Source: Fistulifera solaris (taxonomy: Eukaryota). Taken from it: DNA of 64,000 nucleotides. The stretch lies in contig AP026162.1 of assembly GCA_030295235.1 (NCBI GenBank), positions 1,674,001-1,738,000 of the forward strand, read 5' to 3'. The number at the start of each line of letters is the position of its first letter. Position 1 is the stretch's first letter. Positions 27,548-35,831 of the stretch are shown here, in pieces. The position numbers were made by a program, and so were the translations under genes. The notes under the pieces were generated by a model that had not been told where the DNA came from, searched no databases, and saw only the letters and a list, made by a program, of their open reading frames with translations.

Positions 27548-29297
27548 ATGGAAAGCAGACGTAGAAACAGCGAGATGCGTCGTCCTCCGGCCGAAAATGA
27601 GGCGCCGGAACAGGGTTCGTTCCTGACGCCGGTCATTTTATCGATTTTGGTTACCGAAACAGGTGAATCTCTATACTTGCATTGTTCAAAAACCGTTCCA
27701 CTGTTCTGACTTTATACATTTTACTAGGAGAACGCTTCGCATACTTTGGCTTTCGTGCCGTGTTGGTTTTGTATTTTAACCAAGCGCTCGAGTATGACGA
27801 AAGTCAGTCCGTGGCGAACTATGCTTTTGTGACGTCGTTGGCTTACTTCTCTCCCATTGCGGGAGCCGTCATGGCCGATGGACGTTGGGGACGGTACAAT
27901 ACGATTTTGTATTTTGGGATTATTTACATTTTGGGTCTCGCCATTTTGACGGCTGCTTCCGTGTTACACGATCTTTCTTTAAAGCGACTTATTTCATTCG
28001 TGGGCTTGTTCTTTGTTTGTCTGGGTACTGGAGGGATCAAACCATGCGTATCTTCTTTTGGAGCCGATCAAGTAGGGCATGACCCCAATGTGCAATGTGA
28101 TGATGGTACTAAGGATAGCGTGAGGCAAGTCGAATCGTCCGTTCGGACAGCTCAAGTGCAAGGCTTCTTTGCCTACTTTTACTTTTGCATCAATCTCGGA
28201 GCATTGACCAGCATATCCACCATTCCTCTATTACGAGCTCATTATGGTTTCCGTGCCGCTTTCTTCACGCCGCTGGTGTTCATGATACTCGCAATGACAT
28301 TGTTTGTGTCAAAACGCAAGGAATATGTTCATCACCTCCCAGAAAAAGTTGGGTCCTCGCTCCTCACGACTTGCCGCTACACGTTTTGGCTTTTTCGTCG
28401 AAATCTTGTACATTCGTATCCTTCTCTGGCGTCCCGTTTACCGTTCTTGGCGCCAGGATCATTGTCCGATTACCGTGTGCTGCAGAACTCTCTAGACGAT
28501 GACACCCAGGCGACTCCGGAAAACGAAGTGACTGTTGATGACGATGGTTCATCGGAACAACAGCTTGAGGACGCAGCTCAAGCCTTACATGTCTTACCTA
28601 TTATGATGATGCTCCCTATCTTTTGGGCTCTGTATGATCAGCAAAGCTCTGTGTGGACGTTGCAGGCTCAGAGGATGAAGCTGCATGGTCTGCAACCGGA
28701 GCAGCTCAATATCATTAATCCAATGCAAATCATGGTATTCATCCCACTTTTGACAAGGTCATCTATCCAGCGCTAAGACAACGTCACGTGAATATTGAAC
28801 CGCTGCGGCGTATGTCATGGGGAATGTTGCTGGCGGCGGCCTCTTTCGTGATCAGCGGATTGGTGGAAAATGCGATACAAAACGCGCCTCCCAATTCGGT
28901 GGATGTGTTCTGGCAATTGCCCCAAATCACAGTTTTAGCAATCGCTGAAATATTTCTTAGTGTCACAGGGTTGGAGTTTGCATACGCGACGTCACCAGAA
29001 CGCTTGAAAACGTTCCTCATGGGTGTTTTTCTCCTCACGACAGCAGTGGGCGACATGTTCAGTGGCGTTTTGTATTCGACCATTTTTGCCCATCTGAACC
29101 AAGCCGTTGTCTTGTATATTTGCGCTGCTTTGATGCTGGGAAATCTTGCTTTGTTTCAGAAGGTGGTGTTGTGGTACAATCGGTGTGATTTTCTCTCTTT
29201 ACGACAGTCATCGGACGACATCGAGATCCAAGCGTTAAAGAGTTCAGCCATCCGCGACGCTACATCTTTACGAAATTGCGACGTTAAAATTACATGA
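27548..29297 (+). CDS. POT/PTR family proton-dependent oligopeptide transporter (intron 27663-27727; frameshift ~28750)
   Basis: ETGERFAYFG (ExxERF motif across the intron), GTGGIKPCVSSFGADQ, FYFCINLG, FWALYDQQSSVWTLQA, EIFLSVTGLEFAY. Confidence 0.92.
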
Positions 29298-29419: not shown

Positions 29420-32400
29420 CTATAAGGACTTCAGTGACGCCAGTACAGGCTGTCGGGAACAAATCTTCTTTGCCTTTGAAACGAGGACTTTTATTTCCGA
29501 GCAGGGGACTAAGTAACACCGTTGTTTTTCAAATGGGTCCGCTCTGCTGAGGATCCCGATCACTCGACCTTCGTCGTTGACGCATGGTCCTCCCGAGTGT
29601 CCCTGAATAGTCGGACAGATGATGACAATTTCCTCGCGTGGCGAGAAAGAGTTATGACTGGTCGAATCATCGTCTGAGCTACTATCATCATCCTGCGGAG
29701 GGGAGACGAAACGTCGGACTATGTAACCCTTCGCAAAATCAGCAGAGCGGTTAATGTGCTTTCCTTTTCAAGAATACCGTCGCCCCCTTGATTGAATCCA
29801 ACAACTCTGACACTTTCTTCAAGCTCATATTTCGTAGTCATTTTGAGGGGTTTCAGGTCTTCTTCTAGCATCATGTCCATTGCAATAATACGCTCCGGTT
29901 GATAGGCGCAGCCCTCCCCTTCGTTGTCAACATCGTTTTCCATTCGTGTCTTGATACGGACAACGCATGCGTCAACATAATGTATGTCATCAGCGATTAA
30001 TTCTCCGAAATATCTCCACAAAGCTTTGTGCTCATTTTCGTTTCGGTTGCTATCGCTGCCGTCACTCTTCTCTGGAATAACACCAATCACCACTTTGGCA
30101 TCAGGGAGTCCAAAATAAGGGACTCCGAAATTGTTGCCTCCTTCCATGTTAAAAAGCACATGGCCAGCTGTCACGATTAAACCCAGCTTTTTGTCGACGA
30201 CGAAACCAGAACCAACGGTGCGAATTCGCTTTGTATTCGAATCCCACAAACCAACCAGGACGACACTCGGTAAAATTTCATCCACAGGTTTAGAGCCTTT
30301 TAGCGGATTCGTCGCCTCGTGAACAGGAGCATCCTTGCGATCGGCGACAGTGCCGCAAATGAGATTCGAATCTAGTCTATGCCCTCGCATGCAGCGAACT
30401 ACCGAGCTTCCGCTTTGTGCAAGAGCGTAAACACTATCCCAACTCCACGTACTAGCACTTAAAGGATTCGAACGAGCGAGACATTCAGGGCAGACAGCTT
30501 GAAAGTCCACATTCGCGTACGAATCAAGAATTTGACGCACAGCGTCGAGAACAACCTTGTAGCCACCTTTCGAACACACGAGATGCTTTTGAGTCTAGCA
30601 GTCAAGTCAATGCGTGAAATTCAAATGAAAGGTACTTACCTTGCCAGAGCTTTAAACCATGATGCCCGACTTGGCCCTTGCCGCTGACGACCACTCGTTG
30701 CATACTTGCCCGCATTGCGTCAGCAGCTACGCAATGACCGGCTGTCTGATCCACGATGGAAACAAATATTTCAACAAAGCTTTCACGCATTTCTCCACTT
30801 TCATGGTCGGCAAACACCGTTCCCATTTTGACTATTAATGATGAATTCCAGCATGCTACTTGATGAATACGGACTCTCCCAAGCGCTTGATCATCGTGCT
30901 CTTCCAAGAACTCGTTCATGGATGCCTTTCGTAAGGGTACCGTATGAGATCGCAGCATCGGCTCACCTAGTACCGGGGCTGCCTTGAATGCCTTAGAAAA
31001 TTTGTACACTTCACTAAGAACGGTGACTGTTAGATCCTCCATCAAATGTGATGGAGCACCGTCTCGAAAAAAGCCAGGAATGGCAGAGCGTTGTCATCCA
31101 TGCTTCTTTTGTTTTATAAGTCCACACCTCTCGAGGGTCGGCTTGTGCGAGCAAGCTAGGGACAAAGAATATCTCATCCTTACTGTCCAAAGAAGATGAT
31201 GACTGCGAGAAGGTACCGACGTTAAGACACACGATGTCGTACTGATTACTTTGATGTCAGGCACTTACGACATTGAGAGGAAGAAACACCCCAGTATGAA
31301 CCAATAACTGAGCCAAAAAGGCGAACATTGTAGGCGTTGAAGTAGACGTTTCTGCAACTTGAGAATAGTGATCGGCTGCCTCCCTCATGAAGCTCATCGA
31401 TTGCCAAAGCATTTCAGCATCTTTGTCGCTCAACAAAGGGCAATTGTGTGAGCCAGCGCTCAGAGTTCGAATGACTTCGCTCTCCGAAAATTTGTATGGG
31501 CTATAAATGCATTGTAAGTTCATAAATCGTCGAGTCTCTTCCAGCTCTCTTTTCAGATCATTTCTCAAAATGCAACTCAACGCCGAAACGAGCCATTTGC
31601 GACTTAGTACAATATACCGAGAAAGCACATCGTCCCCCGCTGACCCAAAATACAGAATTTCTCCAATATTTGATAAAAATTGCAAAGTCTCAGTAACTTC
31701 CTTCAATTCCATTTTGTCGCCAATTTCACCTAGTAGATAATCCAATAGTATCAATTTATGTCCTTCCTTAAACCGACGAATGAGTTCCATGACCATCACC
31801 GTGCCCTTCGATACTGGAGTGCCAACATGGTCAAAAACTGAACGAGAATCATCGGATGCTATTGCCTGAATCGTATCTTGTAAACGATCGAACCCTTCAC
31901 CGGTGGCATAGTCTACGGTAAGAATATCACTTGCGGCACTTGAAATCAACTTAGGAGCTGCGCCTTTGCTTTCCAATCTATAAACATGCTCCACCAACGA
32001 GTTTTTCAGCATACCACACCGTCTCGTAACCTCCTCTTCGGACATAATCTCATTCGGCGTGATGACTACAGGAAGCACAGCAGAATTGTCTCCTCGTTGC
32101 GCAATCATGTCAATCCAAGGAAGAACACGTTGATTGATGTCAGCCAGTAAGAAGCGATCAGCTTTCCGGTTGGCTTCTTCAAGATGAAAGGCATTTGGCA
32201 ATGCATCGGTGCCGCCCGCGTCGCCAGTCTCTTCTTCGTCTTCATTTTCTTCGTCAACATCGTCTGGTTCCCAGCCAGGAGGTATTCGAAAGGTCCTTCG
32301 ATTCATGCAAGCCAAATCCCAAACCAGTAAATACAAGGATTGACCAGAGAAAAAGAGTGACTGGGTTGCTGGATGCGCCCCAAAATTGCTCATTTCTTCA

Positions 32401-34215
32401 CGAACCTCCGGGCTTTGGACATCCCAGATCATAAACTTGATAGGTATATCATCAGCCAGATGGATACTCTCATCCTTCTTGCACGGGGTCCAACTGTGAA
32501 CGTCAACCCCAAGAGTGGCTCTACGACGTGGTCGCTTCTGACTGCCGCGGAGCGATCGCGCCACCAAGATTTATCTACCCCGGGTGCAGCGACCGTGATC
32601 ACTTTCAGCATGTCATTGTACACGTGCAAATCCGCATTGCATGATCTGGAAAGGGGTACTGGACCCCCATCGGATTTCCCACGCGGAAGAATGCGTGCGG
32701 GCGGAAGATCAGCGGAATCCAAGTCGACTGTGGTTTCTTGCGCCGCTCGCATTAACATTGCTTCCACATCCGGTGTATCGCCTTTGTCAACTTTGTAGTC
32801 AGCATCACGAGGAAGTGCACTGGCGATCATCGAGCCGTCGTCTTTTTCCAGTATGGGTGATCTTCTGTGTCGATGACAGCAGCAACATCTGCAGCCAATA
32901 CTCCTGCCTCGAGTACTGAGTCCATTATTTGATCTTCGGTCCCCACATAATTTGCCATCACGGAATTGGATCCAACCCTTCTATGTCTATGGATTGAACC
33001 TTGTAAACTGGATCCGGGAGAAGCGGCTACAGACAAAAGTGGATGATCATTCAATGAAGCCGCAGAAAGTGCGGCAGTGGGCGGTGACAATGGATCTTCG
33101 TATCGAGCCGCCGAAAAGTAGCCAGTACGATTTGATGGACCAAATGAAGATTCGAGTCCTGTAACGGCGTTAAATTGATTAGCAGGGGGAATGAAATCTT
33201 CCGGTTCAGATTGTTGTGACCTTCGAAACTGCTGATCGTCGCTATGATTCGAAGTGGAAGCTGTGTCGTCAGATCTACCCCAAGAAAAGATCGACTTCTT
33301 TTTCCCACGCTTCTTTTGCTGTTTGTTTTCTTTTCGATTGGGAGATGCCGGCAGCGGCAGATTGGCTTCTGTCGGCGATACAGTCTGCACCGGCGCTTCG
33401 TCGGAAAGAGCGGATGGTTCCGGCTCCATAACTTCAGTAGATCCACCACTTTCATTTCGCGATGAGCCACGAACGCCTCTTTTAAGAAATTTCGAAAGAC
33501 GCCTCACACCTTTCTTAACTCGATTGGGAGCCTGCGTCGCGGTTTGACACTTGCGTTGTTGCGCTTCTCTAAGTCGTTCCTGGATGATATCGCCGGGATG
33601 ATGTTCGTGTCGGGGTAACTCGACTAGATCCCCATCCACCACGTAGTATTCCACTCCACCGACACCTATATCTTGTACACTACGCATACTGGTAGCAAGC
33701 GTCGGTTCTGAATGTATATTGTGAAAATTCCTGATTTGCTCAAAGTTTCGGAGACCGTCTCCTTCACTGCGTATCGAAAGCTGAAACGTTTCTTCATCCT
33801 GATGCGCGCTAGCCAGGCGGCGTTGTTCACCGGGGACCAAAGGCGAGGATACCGCCAGCGAAAATTGATCAATCCCTGTTCGCACCAAGTCTCTCACAAA
33901 CGTAGCCACCGGATAAGCATAATTTCCCGAACTCGCTCGACGACCGTCATCGGAAATGGCTACCACAGGCACAACTGGAGGAGGAAGCTCGTCAAACTCT
34001 CTTCTTAACATTTCTGAGCTCTGGCTATTTAAGCTTCCCATATTTTGCCAGTCTCTCAACAGCGTGGAGGACGTGTGGCTGTTCAAGCCACTATTGTTGT
34101 TTGCGGCATTCGTCGCCAGGCTTTGATTTCTGTTGGCGTCCGCGGAAGCCCCTTCCGTTCCCGAAACAGCCGGAAACAGTGTATTTGTCTGTTCGTTCCG
34201 GTTTGGAGTAGTCAT
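29420..34215 (-). CDS. Roco-like protein: disordered N-terminus, degenerate ROC, COR, C-terminal trypsin-like serine protease (2 introns, ~4 frameshifts)
   Basis: LKVITVAAPGVDKS, ATLGVDVHSW, KFMIWDVQ, HPATQSLFFSGQSLYLLVWDL, LQFLSNIGEILYF, FFVPSLL, CPEC..CMRGH, then GSGFVVD, IVTAGHV, VDACVV, QGHSGGPC. Introns ~30567-30639 and ~31204-31268. Stop at 29420. Confidence 0.82.
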
Positions 34216-34551
34216 GCTTTTACGTATTGAATGAACGTTTCAGGTAAAAGTCGAAAGGAACGTCGCTGTATGGCTTCAATTGCGTTCATTCGGAACTCGG
34301 AACTGCGCTCGAAGACAAAAACTTCGTGTACGTTGTAATAAGGTTACGCGAGTTGGCTTGCGTGGAAGAACCATAAATCAACTCTATAGACTATAGTCGT
34401 ATGCAACGGATACAAAGTAGTATGAGTAAACTGTAGCGCGCAGGCGATCCGGCACCCGTTGAAAGTCACTTTTGTTTTTGCACCGCACACCGCCTTTTTT
34501 CTCTCTTACAATAACCGTATGTGCCATTGCAAACTCCGTAACGATAACAAC

Positions 34552-35831
34552 ATGCCTGAAGAATCGTCATCTTTGCCCTTTGCGTCTTATCACAGAGCCT
34601 CTCAAGTGGGAGCAGGATCGTACGGAAGCGTTTTGACAGTCTACAATGACGAAGGAGAACAATTTGCACTCAAGTTATTCTTCAAAGGCGACAATGACGA
34701 TGATGACGACGACGATGAAAGCGCGGTTCCTCTGGAATTAGGTACACTAAGAGAAATATCTTGCTTACGATTTCTTCGCGGACAAACAGAAGCATCACAT
34801 CATCCTCATATCATTCGTTTGGTGGATATTCAACCCGAGTGGTCGGAAGAGGAAGGAGGCGCGGGTACATCGGGATGTCTCGGCATGGCCATGCCGTGGT
34901 ACCCCTGTTCGCTCGCGAAAGCGATTGAGCAGAAAAAATTTCAGAACGACAAGCGCGTCAAAGTTCAAATAGCACACGATCTGTTGGCGGCAGTGGATTT
35001 CTTGCACAAAAATGGAATCATGCATCGTGACATTAAAAGCGACAATATTCTTCTGCAACAGGATGAAAATTCGTGGCGTGCGGTTCTCACCGATTTCAGT
35101 CTCGCCAAGGCATTTGTTAACGGAAAGGACAATTACGCGGGTCATACTGGAGAAGTCGGTACGTTAGTGTACTCAGCTCCTGAAATTCTGAATGATGAAG
35201 AGTACGATGCTTCGGTCGATTTGTGGAGCGTTGGCGTCGTCTTGATTGAACTATTGAAGCAGGAAACTATACCCGGACTCAAAGCAAAGCAGATTGTACC
35301 CCATATTCAAGCAATATTGAAAGGATTGTCTGATCAGCCGTTTCCTGATTTGATACGAAGCTTACTTAAGATGGATCCAGCCGAGCGGCTTACTGCGAAC
35401 GAGGCCTTACAGCACGAACTCTTTTCCAAGTTTCAGCTGGATGTTCCCAATTCTTCGAAATTGAATGTGAAAGATGTCTTACCATACGAATATACGAGCG
35501 ATTTATCCAAAAAGGCGAGGGAGAAACGTCTGGCCTTGATCAAAAAGGCGTGCGCGTATTTGGAATCCGAGTCACCCCTTACCGCAAAAGCGGCTTTGAA
35601 TACAGCACGCAACTCGATCAACTGGATGACAATGTGAACGAATCGCAAAGTTTACTAGACTGTGTTGTACTCGCGCATCGCTTCTTCGAGGTCGAACATC
35701 CTGATCTTGATGCGCTCGACGAGGAAGAAAAGGGTATCTTTGCCGAATGGTCGCTGTCAGAATACGTGGAAAATGAATCCACTTTGTTCATGCTGCTGGA
35801 TTATTGCTTGTATCCACGGTTCTACGTCTAG
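34552..35831 (+). CDS. CDK-like Ser/Thr kinase with a C-terminal cyclin-box-like domain (frameshift ~35596)
   Basis: GAGSYGSV, ALK, GTLREISCL, HPHIIRL, HRDIKSDNIL, DFSLAK, TGEVGTLVYSAPE, DLWSVG. The tail resembles the five cyclin-box helices. Confidence 0.8.

Follow-up and report, generated by a model that had tools for sequence, protein, structure and literature searches.

An intact diatom gene encodes a Roco-family protein with a remodelled Roc domain and a predicted trypsin-fold serine protease

The combination of a Roc-COR core with a protease has already been described at the domain level (PMC11378527, PMC8195603, in their available parts). The available text of PMC11378527 reports a C-terminal peptidase in the brown-algal 'group 3' ROCOs and in other SAR ROCOs; the brown-algal peptidase group comprises 3 members among 111 genes and is without LRR exon shuffling. 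Among bacterial LRR-AP-GTPase-COR proteins, trypsin is one of at least 24 effector domains, and those members whose effector is a trypsin, a caspase, or a TIR domain are read as bacterial conflict systems (available parts of PMC8195603). LRR-ROCOs have been proposed as immune receptors in brown algae (available parts of PMC3341825 and PMC11378527). Within the window, i.e., the whole 64,000-nucleotide stretch of DNA that we analysed, positions 34215..29420 of the minus strand encode a single protein that combines a disordered N-terminus, a Roc domain, COR-A and COR-B, a C-x2-C...C-x3-H module, and a His/Asp/Ser protease. The locus is a diatom gene of three exons, intact and transcribed, whose 1552-aa product is a member of the Roco (Roc-COR) family. 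Its distinctive point is a conserved change in the nucleotide-binding loop rather than the domain combination; we found no mention in the literature of the derived clade to which it belongs, in which the LRRs and G4 are lost and the P-loop reads G-x4-[D/E]-K-S.

Stramenopile LRR-Roc-COR-peptidase ROCOs, e.g., P0154 of Pseudo-nitzschia multistriata and P0160 of Odontella aurita, have Roc-COR, the Cys/His module, and Trypsin_2 in common with the window protein, and homology to the diatom LRR-bearing ROCOs spans Roc-COR-protease (E-values of 1e-30 to 1e-41 for the Roc/COR-A piece). In contrast to these proteins, the window protein carries a disordered region of ~520 aa instead of LRRs, a P-loop of A-x4-D-K-S rather than G-x4-G-K-T, and WDVQS rather than WDFAGQ at G3, and it has lost the G4 Asp. 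Set against the LRR-Roco subfamily with a C-terminal peptidase, it has the PA-clan domain (IPR009003/Trypsin_2) C-terminal to COR but not the LRRs; the brown-algal group 3 ROCOs are likened to it by their description in the available text of PMC11378527 and not by sequence. The bacterial LRR-AP-GTPase-COR proteins follow the same logic, with a Roc/AP-GTPase and COR core and a C-terminal trypsin-fold effector, but are prokaryotic, LRR-bearing, and presumed to diversify rapidly (available parts of PMC8195603). A narrow pattern-based scan recovered no close prokaryotic relative. The Roc-COR tandem is also common to LRRK1, LRRK2, and the Rocos of Chlorobium tepidum and Methanosarcina barkeri, and LRRK2 likewise places its output enzyme after COR. 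However, the output is a serine protease in the window protein and kinase-WD40 in LRRK1 and LRRK2, and the window protein differs further in having no ARM/ANK/LRR repeats, in its non-canonical nucleotide motifs, and in the Cys/His module after COR-B.

The diatom family contains 132 long relatives. All named relatives are diatoms, in line with the diatom-like host proposed in the initial annotation. Precomputed Trypsin_2 matches lie beside COR-A and/or Roc in 90 of the 120 long relatives listed; together with a spliced contig that links COR-B to the protease exon, this bears out the proposal of a Roco fused to a protease. When 24 relatives were scanned with Pfam, Trypsin_2 scored above its gathering score in 22, Roc in 14, and COR-A in three, and eight of the 24, more distant relatives from diatoms with the canonical architecture, carried LRRs together with Roc (51.6–58.8 bits), COR-A (7/8 at E ≤ 0.01), and Trypsin_2. 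The LRR motif count was zero in every row of the derived clade, and each named species occurred once among the listed matches of this LRR-less clade. Identity across genera in COR and protease was 53–62%. By these comparisons, the protein belongs, as an orthologue-type member, to a family of the raphid pennate diatoms, and the LRR-less family is, as judged from its sequences, descended from canonical LRR-Roc-COR-protease Rocos that are still present in diatoms. The order of LRR loss followed by the change of G to D/E is the parsimonious reading of an unrooted family tree.

The N-terminal ~520 aa (32657..34215, minus strand) is rich in S, A, and R, and predicted to be disordered, with a few short family-conserved motifs. 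Scans of 470-aa and 183-aa pieces of this region returned no Pfam families; the predicted structure of the database protein P0001 has pLDDT below 50 over residues 1–188 and most of 247–482; and mean identity to relatives is 20%, with conserved islands. LRRs gave no Pfam match in the window pieces or P0001 and, as first noted, the protein has no LRR, ANK, or kinase. No signal peptide was evident when the N-terminus of the 1552-aa protein was inspected by eye.

The Roc G domain (aa ~530–790; 31849..32628, minus strand) includes an acidic disordered insert and is followed by COR-A (aa ~800–983; 31269..31821, minus strand). Both score below the Pfam gathering scores in the window protein, with 15.5–18.8 bits for Roc (gathering score 27; E = 0.022 when the uncorrected window pieces were scanned) and 28.5 bits for COR-A (E = 1.6e-6; gathering score 35.3), and their assignment is secured via relatives. 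The best match of the derived-clade profile was the Roc domain of LRRK2 (E = 1.5e-7), followed by 4wnr Roco2 (3.5e-4) and LRRK1 (1.8e-3), and the Roc fold was predicted confidently in models of P0001 and P0006 (pLDDT > 90). COR-B (aa ~984–1185; 30525..31202, minus strand), which is split by intron B, was assigned from the P0006 model and its fold matches. The fold evidence for Roc-COR and for the protease was obtained on this 60% identical relative and not on the C-terminal half of the window protein itself. The P0006 model (pLDDT 80.4, pTM 0.78) matched LRRK1 (E = 4.9e-20), LRRK2, 6hlu, 3dpu, and 4wnr (M. barkeri RocCORdC; TMt 0.73), and aligned over 715–868 columns with Roc-COR of LRRK1/2 and the C. 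tepidum Roco. The profile match to LRRK2, the COR-A score, and these fold matches all agree with the initial reading of a ROC-like region followed by a COR-like region.

Between COR-B and the protease lies the C-x2-C...C-x3-H module (30379..30492, minus strand), formed by Cys1196, Cys1199, Cys1229, and His1233. The CPEC (30492-30481) and C..GH (30393-30379) elements that had been noticed after COR were both located on the minus strand. Cys is present in 65/65 at each of the three positions, and the LRR-bearing relatives likewise show no variation at these Cys and almost none at the His. A profile search matched the module to no solved chain; it is probably a zinc site.

Pfam, the catalytic triad, and the fold together assign the C-terminal region (29459..30267, minus strand) to a trypsin-fold serine protease (Trypsin_2, HtrA-like). 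The Pfam scan that had been suggested at the outset returned Trypsin_2 at 26.0 and 28.0 bits on two raw window pieces, in addition to the Roc and COR-A matches above, and at 52.5 bits in P0003, the closest full-length relative; the combined matches on the window pieces greatly exceed chance expectation. The triad is complete, as originally described: TAGH (30171-30160) holds His1306 (codon 30162-30160), VDAC (29976-29965) holds Asp1369 (codon 29973-29971), and GHSGGP (29602-29585) holds Ser1495 (codon 29596-29594), all on the minus strand. Each of the three residues is conserved in 65/65, G-H-S-G-G-P is near-invariant, and the protein ends ~57 residues past the catalytic Ser. The ordered triad, GxSGGP-type oxyanion loop, and double beta-barrel (fold on P0006) are those of PA-clan S1 (Pfam Trypsin_2), and the protease is catalytically complete and predicted to be active. 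In the P0006 model, the protease gave target-normalised TM scores of ~0.73–0.75 to the protease-only chains MarP, HtrA1, and DegS, compared to 0.34–0.53 for longer PDZ-bearing chains; the clade profile matched HtrA1 (1.2e-6) and HtrA2. The chymotrypsin double-barrel and His-Asp-Ser triad are common to HtrA/DegP/DegS and MarP (Rv3671c), whereas the second barrel of the window protein includes a disordered loop rich in acidic residues and Ser, and its protease is tethered to Roc-COR, theirs being stand-alone periplasmic or mitochondrial oligomers. The HtrA family is defined by one or more C-terminal PDZ domains and by trimer-based oligomers. Since PDZ had no Pfam match in the window pieces or the 24 relatives, the protein falls outside the HtrA family (S1C) proper.

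The nucleotide-binding motifs of Roc had been described as degenerate. G1 does read AAPGVDKS (32590-32567, minus strand), which is non-canonical. At G3 the description holds for this gene, which reads WDVQS (32426-32412, minus strand), but not for the family, in which G3 is the canonical DxxG (WDVQG, Gly in 51/65) and Ser is confined to this gene and a minority of relatives. The Thr in ATLGVD represents G2, within Roc (31849..32628, minus strand), and the G4 position, aligned to LRRK2 THLD by the clade profile, reads ITPNE, without [NT]KxD/THxD. Against the canonical G1 GxxxxGK[ST], G3 DxxG, and G4 [NT][KH]xD, the protein thus has AxxxxDKS, DVQS, and no G4, and we therefore class it as a Roco on the grounds of homology and architecture, though probably one that is non-canonical or a pseudo-enzyme. 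Of the 176 covered rows, 92 have D, 23 have E, and 41 have G immediately before the P-loop Lys. G4 reads P-x-x-M in the derived clade, with the guanine-specificity Asp missing clade-wide, and the LRR-bearing relatives retain GMAMVGKT and WDFAGQ.

From these motifs, pseudo-GTPase status is a reasonable prediction, but the label calls for caution because the P-loop Lys (160/176 rows) and Ser/Thr (152/176) are retained. The Roc domain of the clade might instead be a working switch, with the G-x4-[D/E]-K-S loop binding GTP or another nucleotide and the protein acting as a GTPase- or ATPase-regulated protease. Also kept are Thr at G2 (115/176) and, at G3, both Asp (160/185) and Gly (146/185); such retention would be unexpected were phosphate/Mg binding irrelevant, and so disfavours a dead switch. 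Roc is moreover well conserved, with a mean identity of 43% compared to 20% for the N-terminus, and its fold is confidently predicted. However, an acidic side chain takes the place of the Gly whose backbone lines the phosphate pocket, and in the Ras family substitutions of the equivalent Gly15 yield nucleotide-free proteins. The clade-wide absence of the G4 Asp argues in the same direction, and this gene additionally has Ala in place of the first Gly of the P-loop and Ser in place of the Gly of G3. We rate a working switch as a serious reading, though less likely than not.

We think it likely, taking the evidence jointly, that this is an intact, expressed Roco-protease gene, derived from LRR-Rocos, in which a remodelled Roc scaffold gates a protease. 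The data establish the integrity and splicing of the gene, the identities of its domains, the state of its motifs, and its family relationships; that nucleotide binding is lost, that zinc is bound, how the protease would be gated, and what the protein does in the cell are inferred. In this model, Roc-COR would serve as a regulatory scaffold and would either restrain or free the C-terminal protease, which would occupy the place of the LRRK2 kinase. The LRR sensor would have been lost in the derived clade and the nucleotide pocket remodelled by Asp/Glu in place of the second Walker-A Gly, by loss of the G4 Asp, and here by replacement of the G3 Gly with Ser, so that the switch probably no longer cycles GTP normally. 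Control would probably have shifted to the disordered N-terminus, via partner binding or phosphorylation. Gating of the protease by dimerisation is suggested by analogy only.

A more specific and considerably more tentative proposal is that a raphid-diatom Roco lineage discarded its LRRs, its Roc pocket became nucleotide-independent, and a permanently locked Roc-COR gates an HtrA-like protease via a zinc-stabilised COR-B/protease junction, under the disordered N-terminus. The conserved Asp/Glu beside the P-loop Lys/Ser may fill the phosphate site with its acidic side chain as an internal mimic. If true, the locked lineage would represent the first naturally occurring pseudo-GTPase Roco, and comparison with the canonical LRR paralogue that these diatoms also carry would offer a built-in control for how the Roc nucleotide state is transmitted to the C-terminal enzyme, an open question for LRRK2.

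Alternatively, the protein might be an innate-immune or programmed-cell-death executioner, in which a trigger would cause COR-mediated dimerisation or oligomerisation and the protease would then kill or arrest the cell. This reading draws on analogy with the bacterial LRR-AP-GTPase-COR conflict systems (available parts of PMC8195603) and on the proposal that brown-algal LRR-ROCOs are immune receptors (available parts of PMC3341825 and PMC11378527), and diatoms do have LRR-bearing paralogues with the same protease. However, we consider it unlikely for this clade, which is without LRRs or another recognisable sensor and has one sequence per named species among the listed matches. This, together with the 53–62% identity of COR and protease across genera, is what a conserved function in the cell would produce; because of this orthologue-like conservation, a diversifying receptor is disfavoured. 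The brown-algal peptidase group, with its 3/111 genes and no LRR exon shuffling (available parts of PMC11378527), also speaks against an executioner role.

The structure and integrity of the gene were resolved from the window sequence, read contigs of four runs (X1–X4), and relatives. All coordinates that follow are on the minus strand. The corrected CDS is 4659 nt, a single ORF of 1552 codons without internal stops, that runs from the ATG at 34215-34213 to the stop codon at 29422-29420. Exon 1 (31269..34215; two assembly errors) covers the protein from its disordered N-terminus through Roc to COR-A; the independent database protein P0001 is continuous through it without indels. Exon 2 (30638..31202; one assembly error) encodes COR-B, and exon 3 (29420..30564; one assembly error) encodes the end of COR-B, the Cys/His module, a linker, the serine protease, and the stop. 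Intron A (31203..31268, 66 nt, GTAAGT...CAG) is spliced out in X3 contigs and spanned unspliced in X1 and X2 contigs, and intron B (30565..30637, 73 nt, GTAAGT...AG) is spliced out in X3 (side 148) and X4 (side 133). X1, X3, and X4 are RNA runs by guess only; the splicing seen in X3 and X4 contigs indicates that these two contain cDNA. In one spliced contig, COR-B is linked to the exon that holds the Cys/His module along with His and Asp of the protease triad, and continuity of the whole CDS was assembled from overlapping contigs, the ORF, and orthologues rather than from a single contig or transcript. Both GT..AG introns were absent from the initial annotation.

That annotation had listed frameshifts to be repaired near 32830, 32567, 31070, and 29760. 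The window sequence genuinely contains frame breaks at ~32842, 32563, 31067, and 29764, but all four are one-base homopolymer miscounts by the assembly, and the gene itself is not frameshifted. At each site, contigs from every covering run (three or four per site, from two studies including an independent metagenome) carried the compensating indel, at full depth except for X2 at 29764. An A5 run (32843..32847) is A6 in the reads: X1 (33.2/33.2), X2 (16.5/16.5), X3 (23.1/23.1), and X4 (13.2/13.2) all show an insertion behind 32842. At the P-loop/helix-1 junction, GG (32564..32565) is GGG in the reads (insertion behind 32563; X1 18.1/18.1, X2 26.6/26.6, X3 23.1/23.1), and a T6 run (31067..31072) is T5, with one base omitted at 31067 (X1 18.9/18.9, X2 13.1/13.1, X3 17.4/17.4); X4 was without cover at both sites. 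Finally, an A4 run (29765..29768) is A5, with the insertion behind 29764 in X1 (22.1/22.1), X3 (35.1/35.1), X4 (15.5/15.5), and 14/25 in X2. P0001 has no indels across the first two sites, and the residues at the corrected junctions agree with the family consensus. Repair from the reads, as had been advised, thus yielded one ORF.

A pseudogene, or separate Roc-COR and protease genes with real frameshifts, is suggested by the four breaks in the window as given and by the deposited protein P0001, which terminates after COR-A, but is highly improbable, since the read contigs contradict every break, the end of P0001 is a read-through into unspliced intron A that X3 contigs splice, a spliced contig crosses the junction of COR-B with the protease exon, fusion is the rule among orthologues (90/120 listed), and the neighbouring transporter gene has the same type of homopolymer break. 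The read contigs also revealed a variant copy of the gene, whose additional indels (29666; 30310+30313) are multiples of three.

The gene on the minus strand from 34215 to 29420 is real, intact and expressed. Inspection of open reading frames showed a chain of long open frames across this interval; two of the frame junctions are canonical GTAAGT...AG introns, and the other four lie at short homopolymers, with homologous sequence resuming directly in another frame. Read-derived contigs from four of the seven public runs covering the stretch were aligned to the window. X1, X3 and X4 are guessed to be RNA, no run being on record as such, and X2 is a metagenome from a different study, so its agreement on the breaks is not a mere repeat of the source data. 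The contigs depart from the window at each of the four breaks, always by one base. A base is added behind 32842 (depth with the change/total depth: X1 33.2/33.2, X2 16.5/16.5, X3 23.1/23.1, X4 13.2/13.2), behind 32563 (X1 18.1/18.1, X2 26.6/26.6, X3 23.1/23.1) and behind 29764 (X1 22.1/22.1, X3 35.1/35.1, X4 15.5/15.5, X2 14/25), and one is removed at 31067 (X1 18.9/18.9, X2 13.1/13.1, X3 17.4/17.4). The frameshifts that the initial annotation had placed near 32830, 32567, 31070 and 29760 are, by this read check, homopolymer errors of the assembly according to contigs of three to four runs.

Intron A (31203-31268, minus strand, 66 nt, GT..AG) is skipped in X3 contigs, and intron B (30565-30637, minus strand, 73 nt, GT..AG) in X3 and X4 contigs, indicating that spliced cDNA is present in these runs; contigs of X1 and X2 span the unspliced introns. 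Following six edits, i.e., four indels and two introns, the coding sequence comprises 4659 nt (1552 codons plus stop) with zero internal stops, and the residues at the corrected junctions agree with the family consensus in an alignment of relatives. No contig is long enough to cover the gene on its own; its continuity is pieced together from contig overlaps, the uninterrupted reading frame and orthologues. Real frameshifts and separate protease and Roc-COR genes, either of which would have undone the initial annotation, are contradicted by contigs and orthologues: the pseudogene reading is rejected since read-derived contigs contradict the frame breaks, and the two-gene reading by a spliced contig together with fused orthologues. 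The deposited database protein of this gene (P0001, 986 aa), an independent record with 100% identity across the query, passes the first two breaks without an indel and shows only five substitutions over residues 1-983 relative to the window gene. Its end runs into unspliced intron A, and it is truncated because the gene model left this intron (31203-31268) in place; public annotation of the gene lacks the COR-B, Cys/His and protease parts.

The listed motifs were all recovered in the window sequence where the initial annotation had read them, each on the minus strand: G1 AAPGVDKS (32590-32567), G3 WDVQ(S) (32426-32412), CPEC (30492-30481) followed by C..GH (30393-30379), and the protease motifs TAGH (His codon 30162-30160), VDAC (Asp codon 29973-29971) and GHSGGP (Ser codon 29596-29594). 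Of the domains named, Trypsin_2 held up in Pfam (26.0 and 28.0 bits on two adjacent translated pieces). Roc (15.5 bits, E = 0.022) and COR-A (28.5 bits, E = 1.6e-6) were matched on a 437-aa piece (32570-31257) but fell below the gathering cut-offs, and their membership is shown through relatives; no Pfam match was obtained for the 470-aa and 183-aa N-terminal pieces or for two short middle pieces. Given these scores, we tested Roco membership in three ways. A profile built solely from 30 sequences of the derived clade, i.e., LRR-less diatom relatives with Asp or Glu before the P-loop Lys, was run against solved structures and matched the LRRK2 Roc domain best (E = 1.5e-7), followed by Methanosarcina barkeri Roco2 (3.5e-4) and LRRK1 (1.8e-3); HMMER aligned the clade's PVALVPEEM to the LRRK2 G4 motif PVILVGTHLD. 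Distant relatives, with 30-38% identity on the Roc/COR-A piece, proved to be canonical Rocos: among 24 scanned, Roc scored above cut-off in 14 and Trypsin_2 in 22, and eight combine LRR, Roc (51.6-58.8 bits; gathering score 27) and Trypsin_2, with COR-A at E<=0.01 in seven of the eight. These canonical-type proteins include Pseudo-nitzschia multistriata, P. pungens and Odontella aurita, and an additional LRR-less distant relative comes from Leptocylindrus danicus. Finally, we modelled a relative of ~60% identity (P0006; 1138 aa, Roc to C-terminus) with AlphaFold2 from a 56-sequence alignment (pLDDT 80.4, pTM 0.78). Its fold matched, in order, LRRK1 (E = 4.9e-20), LRRK2, Chlorobium tepidum LRR-Roc-COR (6hlu), C. 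tepidum RocCOR (3dpu) and M. barkeri RocCORdC (TMt 0.73).

In the same model, the C-terminal domain matched MarP, Deg2, DegP, HtrA1, DegS, DegQ and MucD, with a target-normalised TM of 0.73-0.75 against the protease-domain-only chains of MarP, HtrA1 and DegS compared with 0.34-0.53 against longer chains. Pfam found no PDZ domain in the window pieces or the 24 scanned relatives; the protease is therefore HtrA-like in fold but outside the strict HtrA family, and true membership of that family was rejected.

At E<=1e-3, the 437-aa Roc/COR-A piece matched 132 long proteins, of which 120 were listed and underlie the family counts. Trypsin_2 with COR-A and/or Roc is precomputed in 90 of these 120, and the 30 without Trypsin_2 are probably for the most part shorter, truncated models like the deposited protein. 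Where a source is named, it is a raphid pennate diatom (Mayamaea, Nitzschia, Seminavis, Cylindrotheca, Epithemia, Pseudo-nitzschia, Bacillariaceae). Run exhaustively against 1.84 billion cluster representatives, HMMER returned just 165 matches at E<=1e-3, showing that the family's Roc-COR is well separated from mainstream Rocos. Two family peptide patterns occurred at 46 stretches of prokaryote genome contigs with none confirmed by tblastn, a narrow scan that says little on bacteria. In the 65 full-length relatives (1350-1950 aa) drawn from the 120, the catalytic His, Asp and Ser of the protease are invariant (65/65 each), as are the three Cys of C-x2-C...C, followed by G-H. Against these relatives, the window protein averages 20% identity over the N-terminus, 43% over Roc, 60% over COR-A, 53% over COR-B, 62% over the Cys/His module and 59% over the protease; a protein atlas search gave no usable match for the Cys/His module. 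The gene encodes a single expressed polypeptide in which the Roc-COR scaffold is intact, the Cys2-Cys-His module at the junction of COR-B and protease is conserved and the protease is catalytically complete. Existing database labels of relatives read 'trypsin-like peptidase domain containing protein', 'S1-C subfamily serine protease' and 'Roc domain-containing protein'. The Seminavis robusta orthologue (P0041) goes under the name 'NADH dehydrogenase (ubiquinone) complex I, assembly factor 6' in NCBI/UniRef; it is probably mis-annotated, since a Pfam scan found Roc, COR-A and Trypsin_2 and no domain of that name.

The nucleotide pocket is remodelled in the window's clade. Across 176 relatives with the P-loop covered, some of them cluster duplicates, the position before the P-loop Lys holds D 92 times, E 23 times, G 41 times and another residue 20 times; 160 retain the Lys itself and 152 the Ser/Thr. 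LRR-bearing proteins carry GMAMVGKT and WDFAGQ and keep a G4 remnant, [ST]-[HF]-x-D; the window's clade has G/A/S-x3-V-[D/E]-K-S and mostly WDVQG, and the G4 Asp is absent. The window protein lies at the degenerate end of this range, with Asp before the Lys, Ala for the first Gly (9/65 full-length relatives) and Ser for the G3 Gly (likewise 9/65). In a maximum-likelihood tree of 56 proteins, which has some long branches and is midpoint-rooted for drawing only, the LRR-bearing proteins group together with strong support, and LRR-less proteins with a canonical P-loop (e.g., VGAPGVGKS) fall between them and the D/E clade. If the canonical state is ancestral, a parsimony assumption, LRR loss would have preceded the change from G to D/E. 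In Ras-family P-loops, an acidic side chain at the glycine before the Lys should strongly impair phosphate binding. That the Roc domain of this clade is a true pseudo-GTPase is possible but less than an even bet, and a still functional, non-canonical switch is only slightly less probable: the acidic residue speaks against such a switch, but retention of the Lys, the Ser/Thr, the G2 Thr and the G3 Asp/Gly would be unexpected of a fully dead pocket. A search of open-access papers and bioRxiv turned up none that describes a Roco whose P-loop is degenerate.

The low-complexity N-terminus without LRR, ANK or kinase was borne out by the missing Pfam matches and by low pLDDT. In a model of the window protein's first 986 residues (P0001; 43-sequence alignment), pLDDT is <50 over residues 1-188 and most of 247-482, with a few short helices and one hairpin there, and >90 for Roc and COR-A. 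The alignment consensus shows short conserved islands within the N-terminal region, whose appearance is that of disordered, regulatory sequence carrying linear motifs.

LRRK2 is the Parkinson's disease kinase, for which it is still debated how the Roc-COR nucleotide state controls the attached enzyme. We propose that the protease may be gated by Roc-COR as the LRRK2 kinase is by its own, that the Cys/His module would bind zinc and fix the COR-B/protease junction, and that in the derived clade the disordered N-terminus may have taken over from LRRs and GTP cycling as the source of input. A complex prediction with two copies of P0006 residues 585-845 (COR-B plus Cys/His module) scored 0.00, the chain's own fold being uncertain and the alignment unused, and weighs neither for nor against dimerisation. 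Analogy with bacterial and brown-algal LRR-Rocos makes an immune or cell-death role possible; we do not favour it, as the window's clade is LRR-less and orthologue-like.

The initial annotation had left the novelty of the architecture open, and the combination is already described in two papers: three brown-algal 'group 3' ROCOs carry a C-terminal peptidase domain, IPR009003 (PMC11378527), and bacterial LRR-AP-GTPase-COR proteins place at least 24 different domains at their C-terminus, trypsin among them (PMC8195603). With these precedents and the labels of relatives, the architecture is not new; PMC3341825 touches on diatom ROCOs only in passing. A search of open-access papers and bioRxiv, the supplementary tree of PMC11378527 lying outside its scope, found no paper on the diatom LRR-less clade or on a diatom Roco-protease. 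The Roco with a C-terminal trypsin-fold peptidase is the known part, and the LRR-less form with a remodelled P-loop is the new one. The diatom lineage offers a simple comparative system for Roc-COR control, with a protease output and a canonical-switch paralogue to set against an altered-P-loop paralogue; a nucleotide-independent Roc-COR controlling a protease would, if true, be of greater interest. In diatom biology, the protein is a large regulated protease, conserved and expressed, and a candidate player in stress or cell-fate signalling.

Contigs of X1, X2 and X3 over 29420-34220 reveal a second, transcribed copy of about 92-94% identity (X3 record 21, for instance, has 68 differences over 1157 nt). 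Its extra indels are multiples of three, with in-frame 3-nt changes at 29666 and 30310-30313. X1 contigs lose similarity exactly at the ends of the coding sequence (loose ends 29421 and 34219), so the second copy could be an allele that has diverged, or a paralogue of recent origin whose flanks differ. Inside the acidic low-complexity Roc insert (32229-32342), several contigs of the X2 metagenome end abruptly; the insert appears variable in length and sequence between strains or species.

The neighbouring POT/PTR2-type transporter gene (27667-29297, plus strand) changes frame at a T4 run (28747-28750), where one added T would restore a continuous '...IPLFDKVIYPAL...' reading; judged from the sequence, this is probably a further homopolymer error. 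Its resemblance to the Roco gene breaks suggests that the assembly is generally prone to such errors. In practical terms, homopolymer indels in the assembly break genes, and a missed intron cut short the deposited 986-aa model. On the other side, a divergent ~400-aa ORF (34426-35637, plus strand) with HRDIKSDNILL, DFS, APE and an acidic insert looks like a CDK/MAPK-like Ser/Thr kinase gene, beginning ~200 nt from the ATG of the Roco gene.
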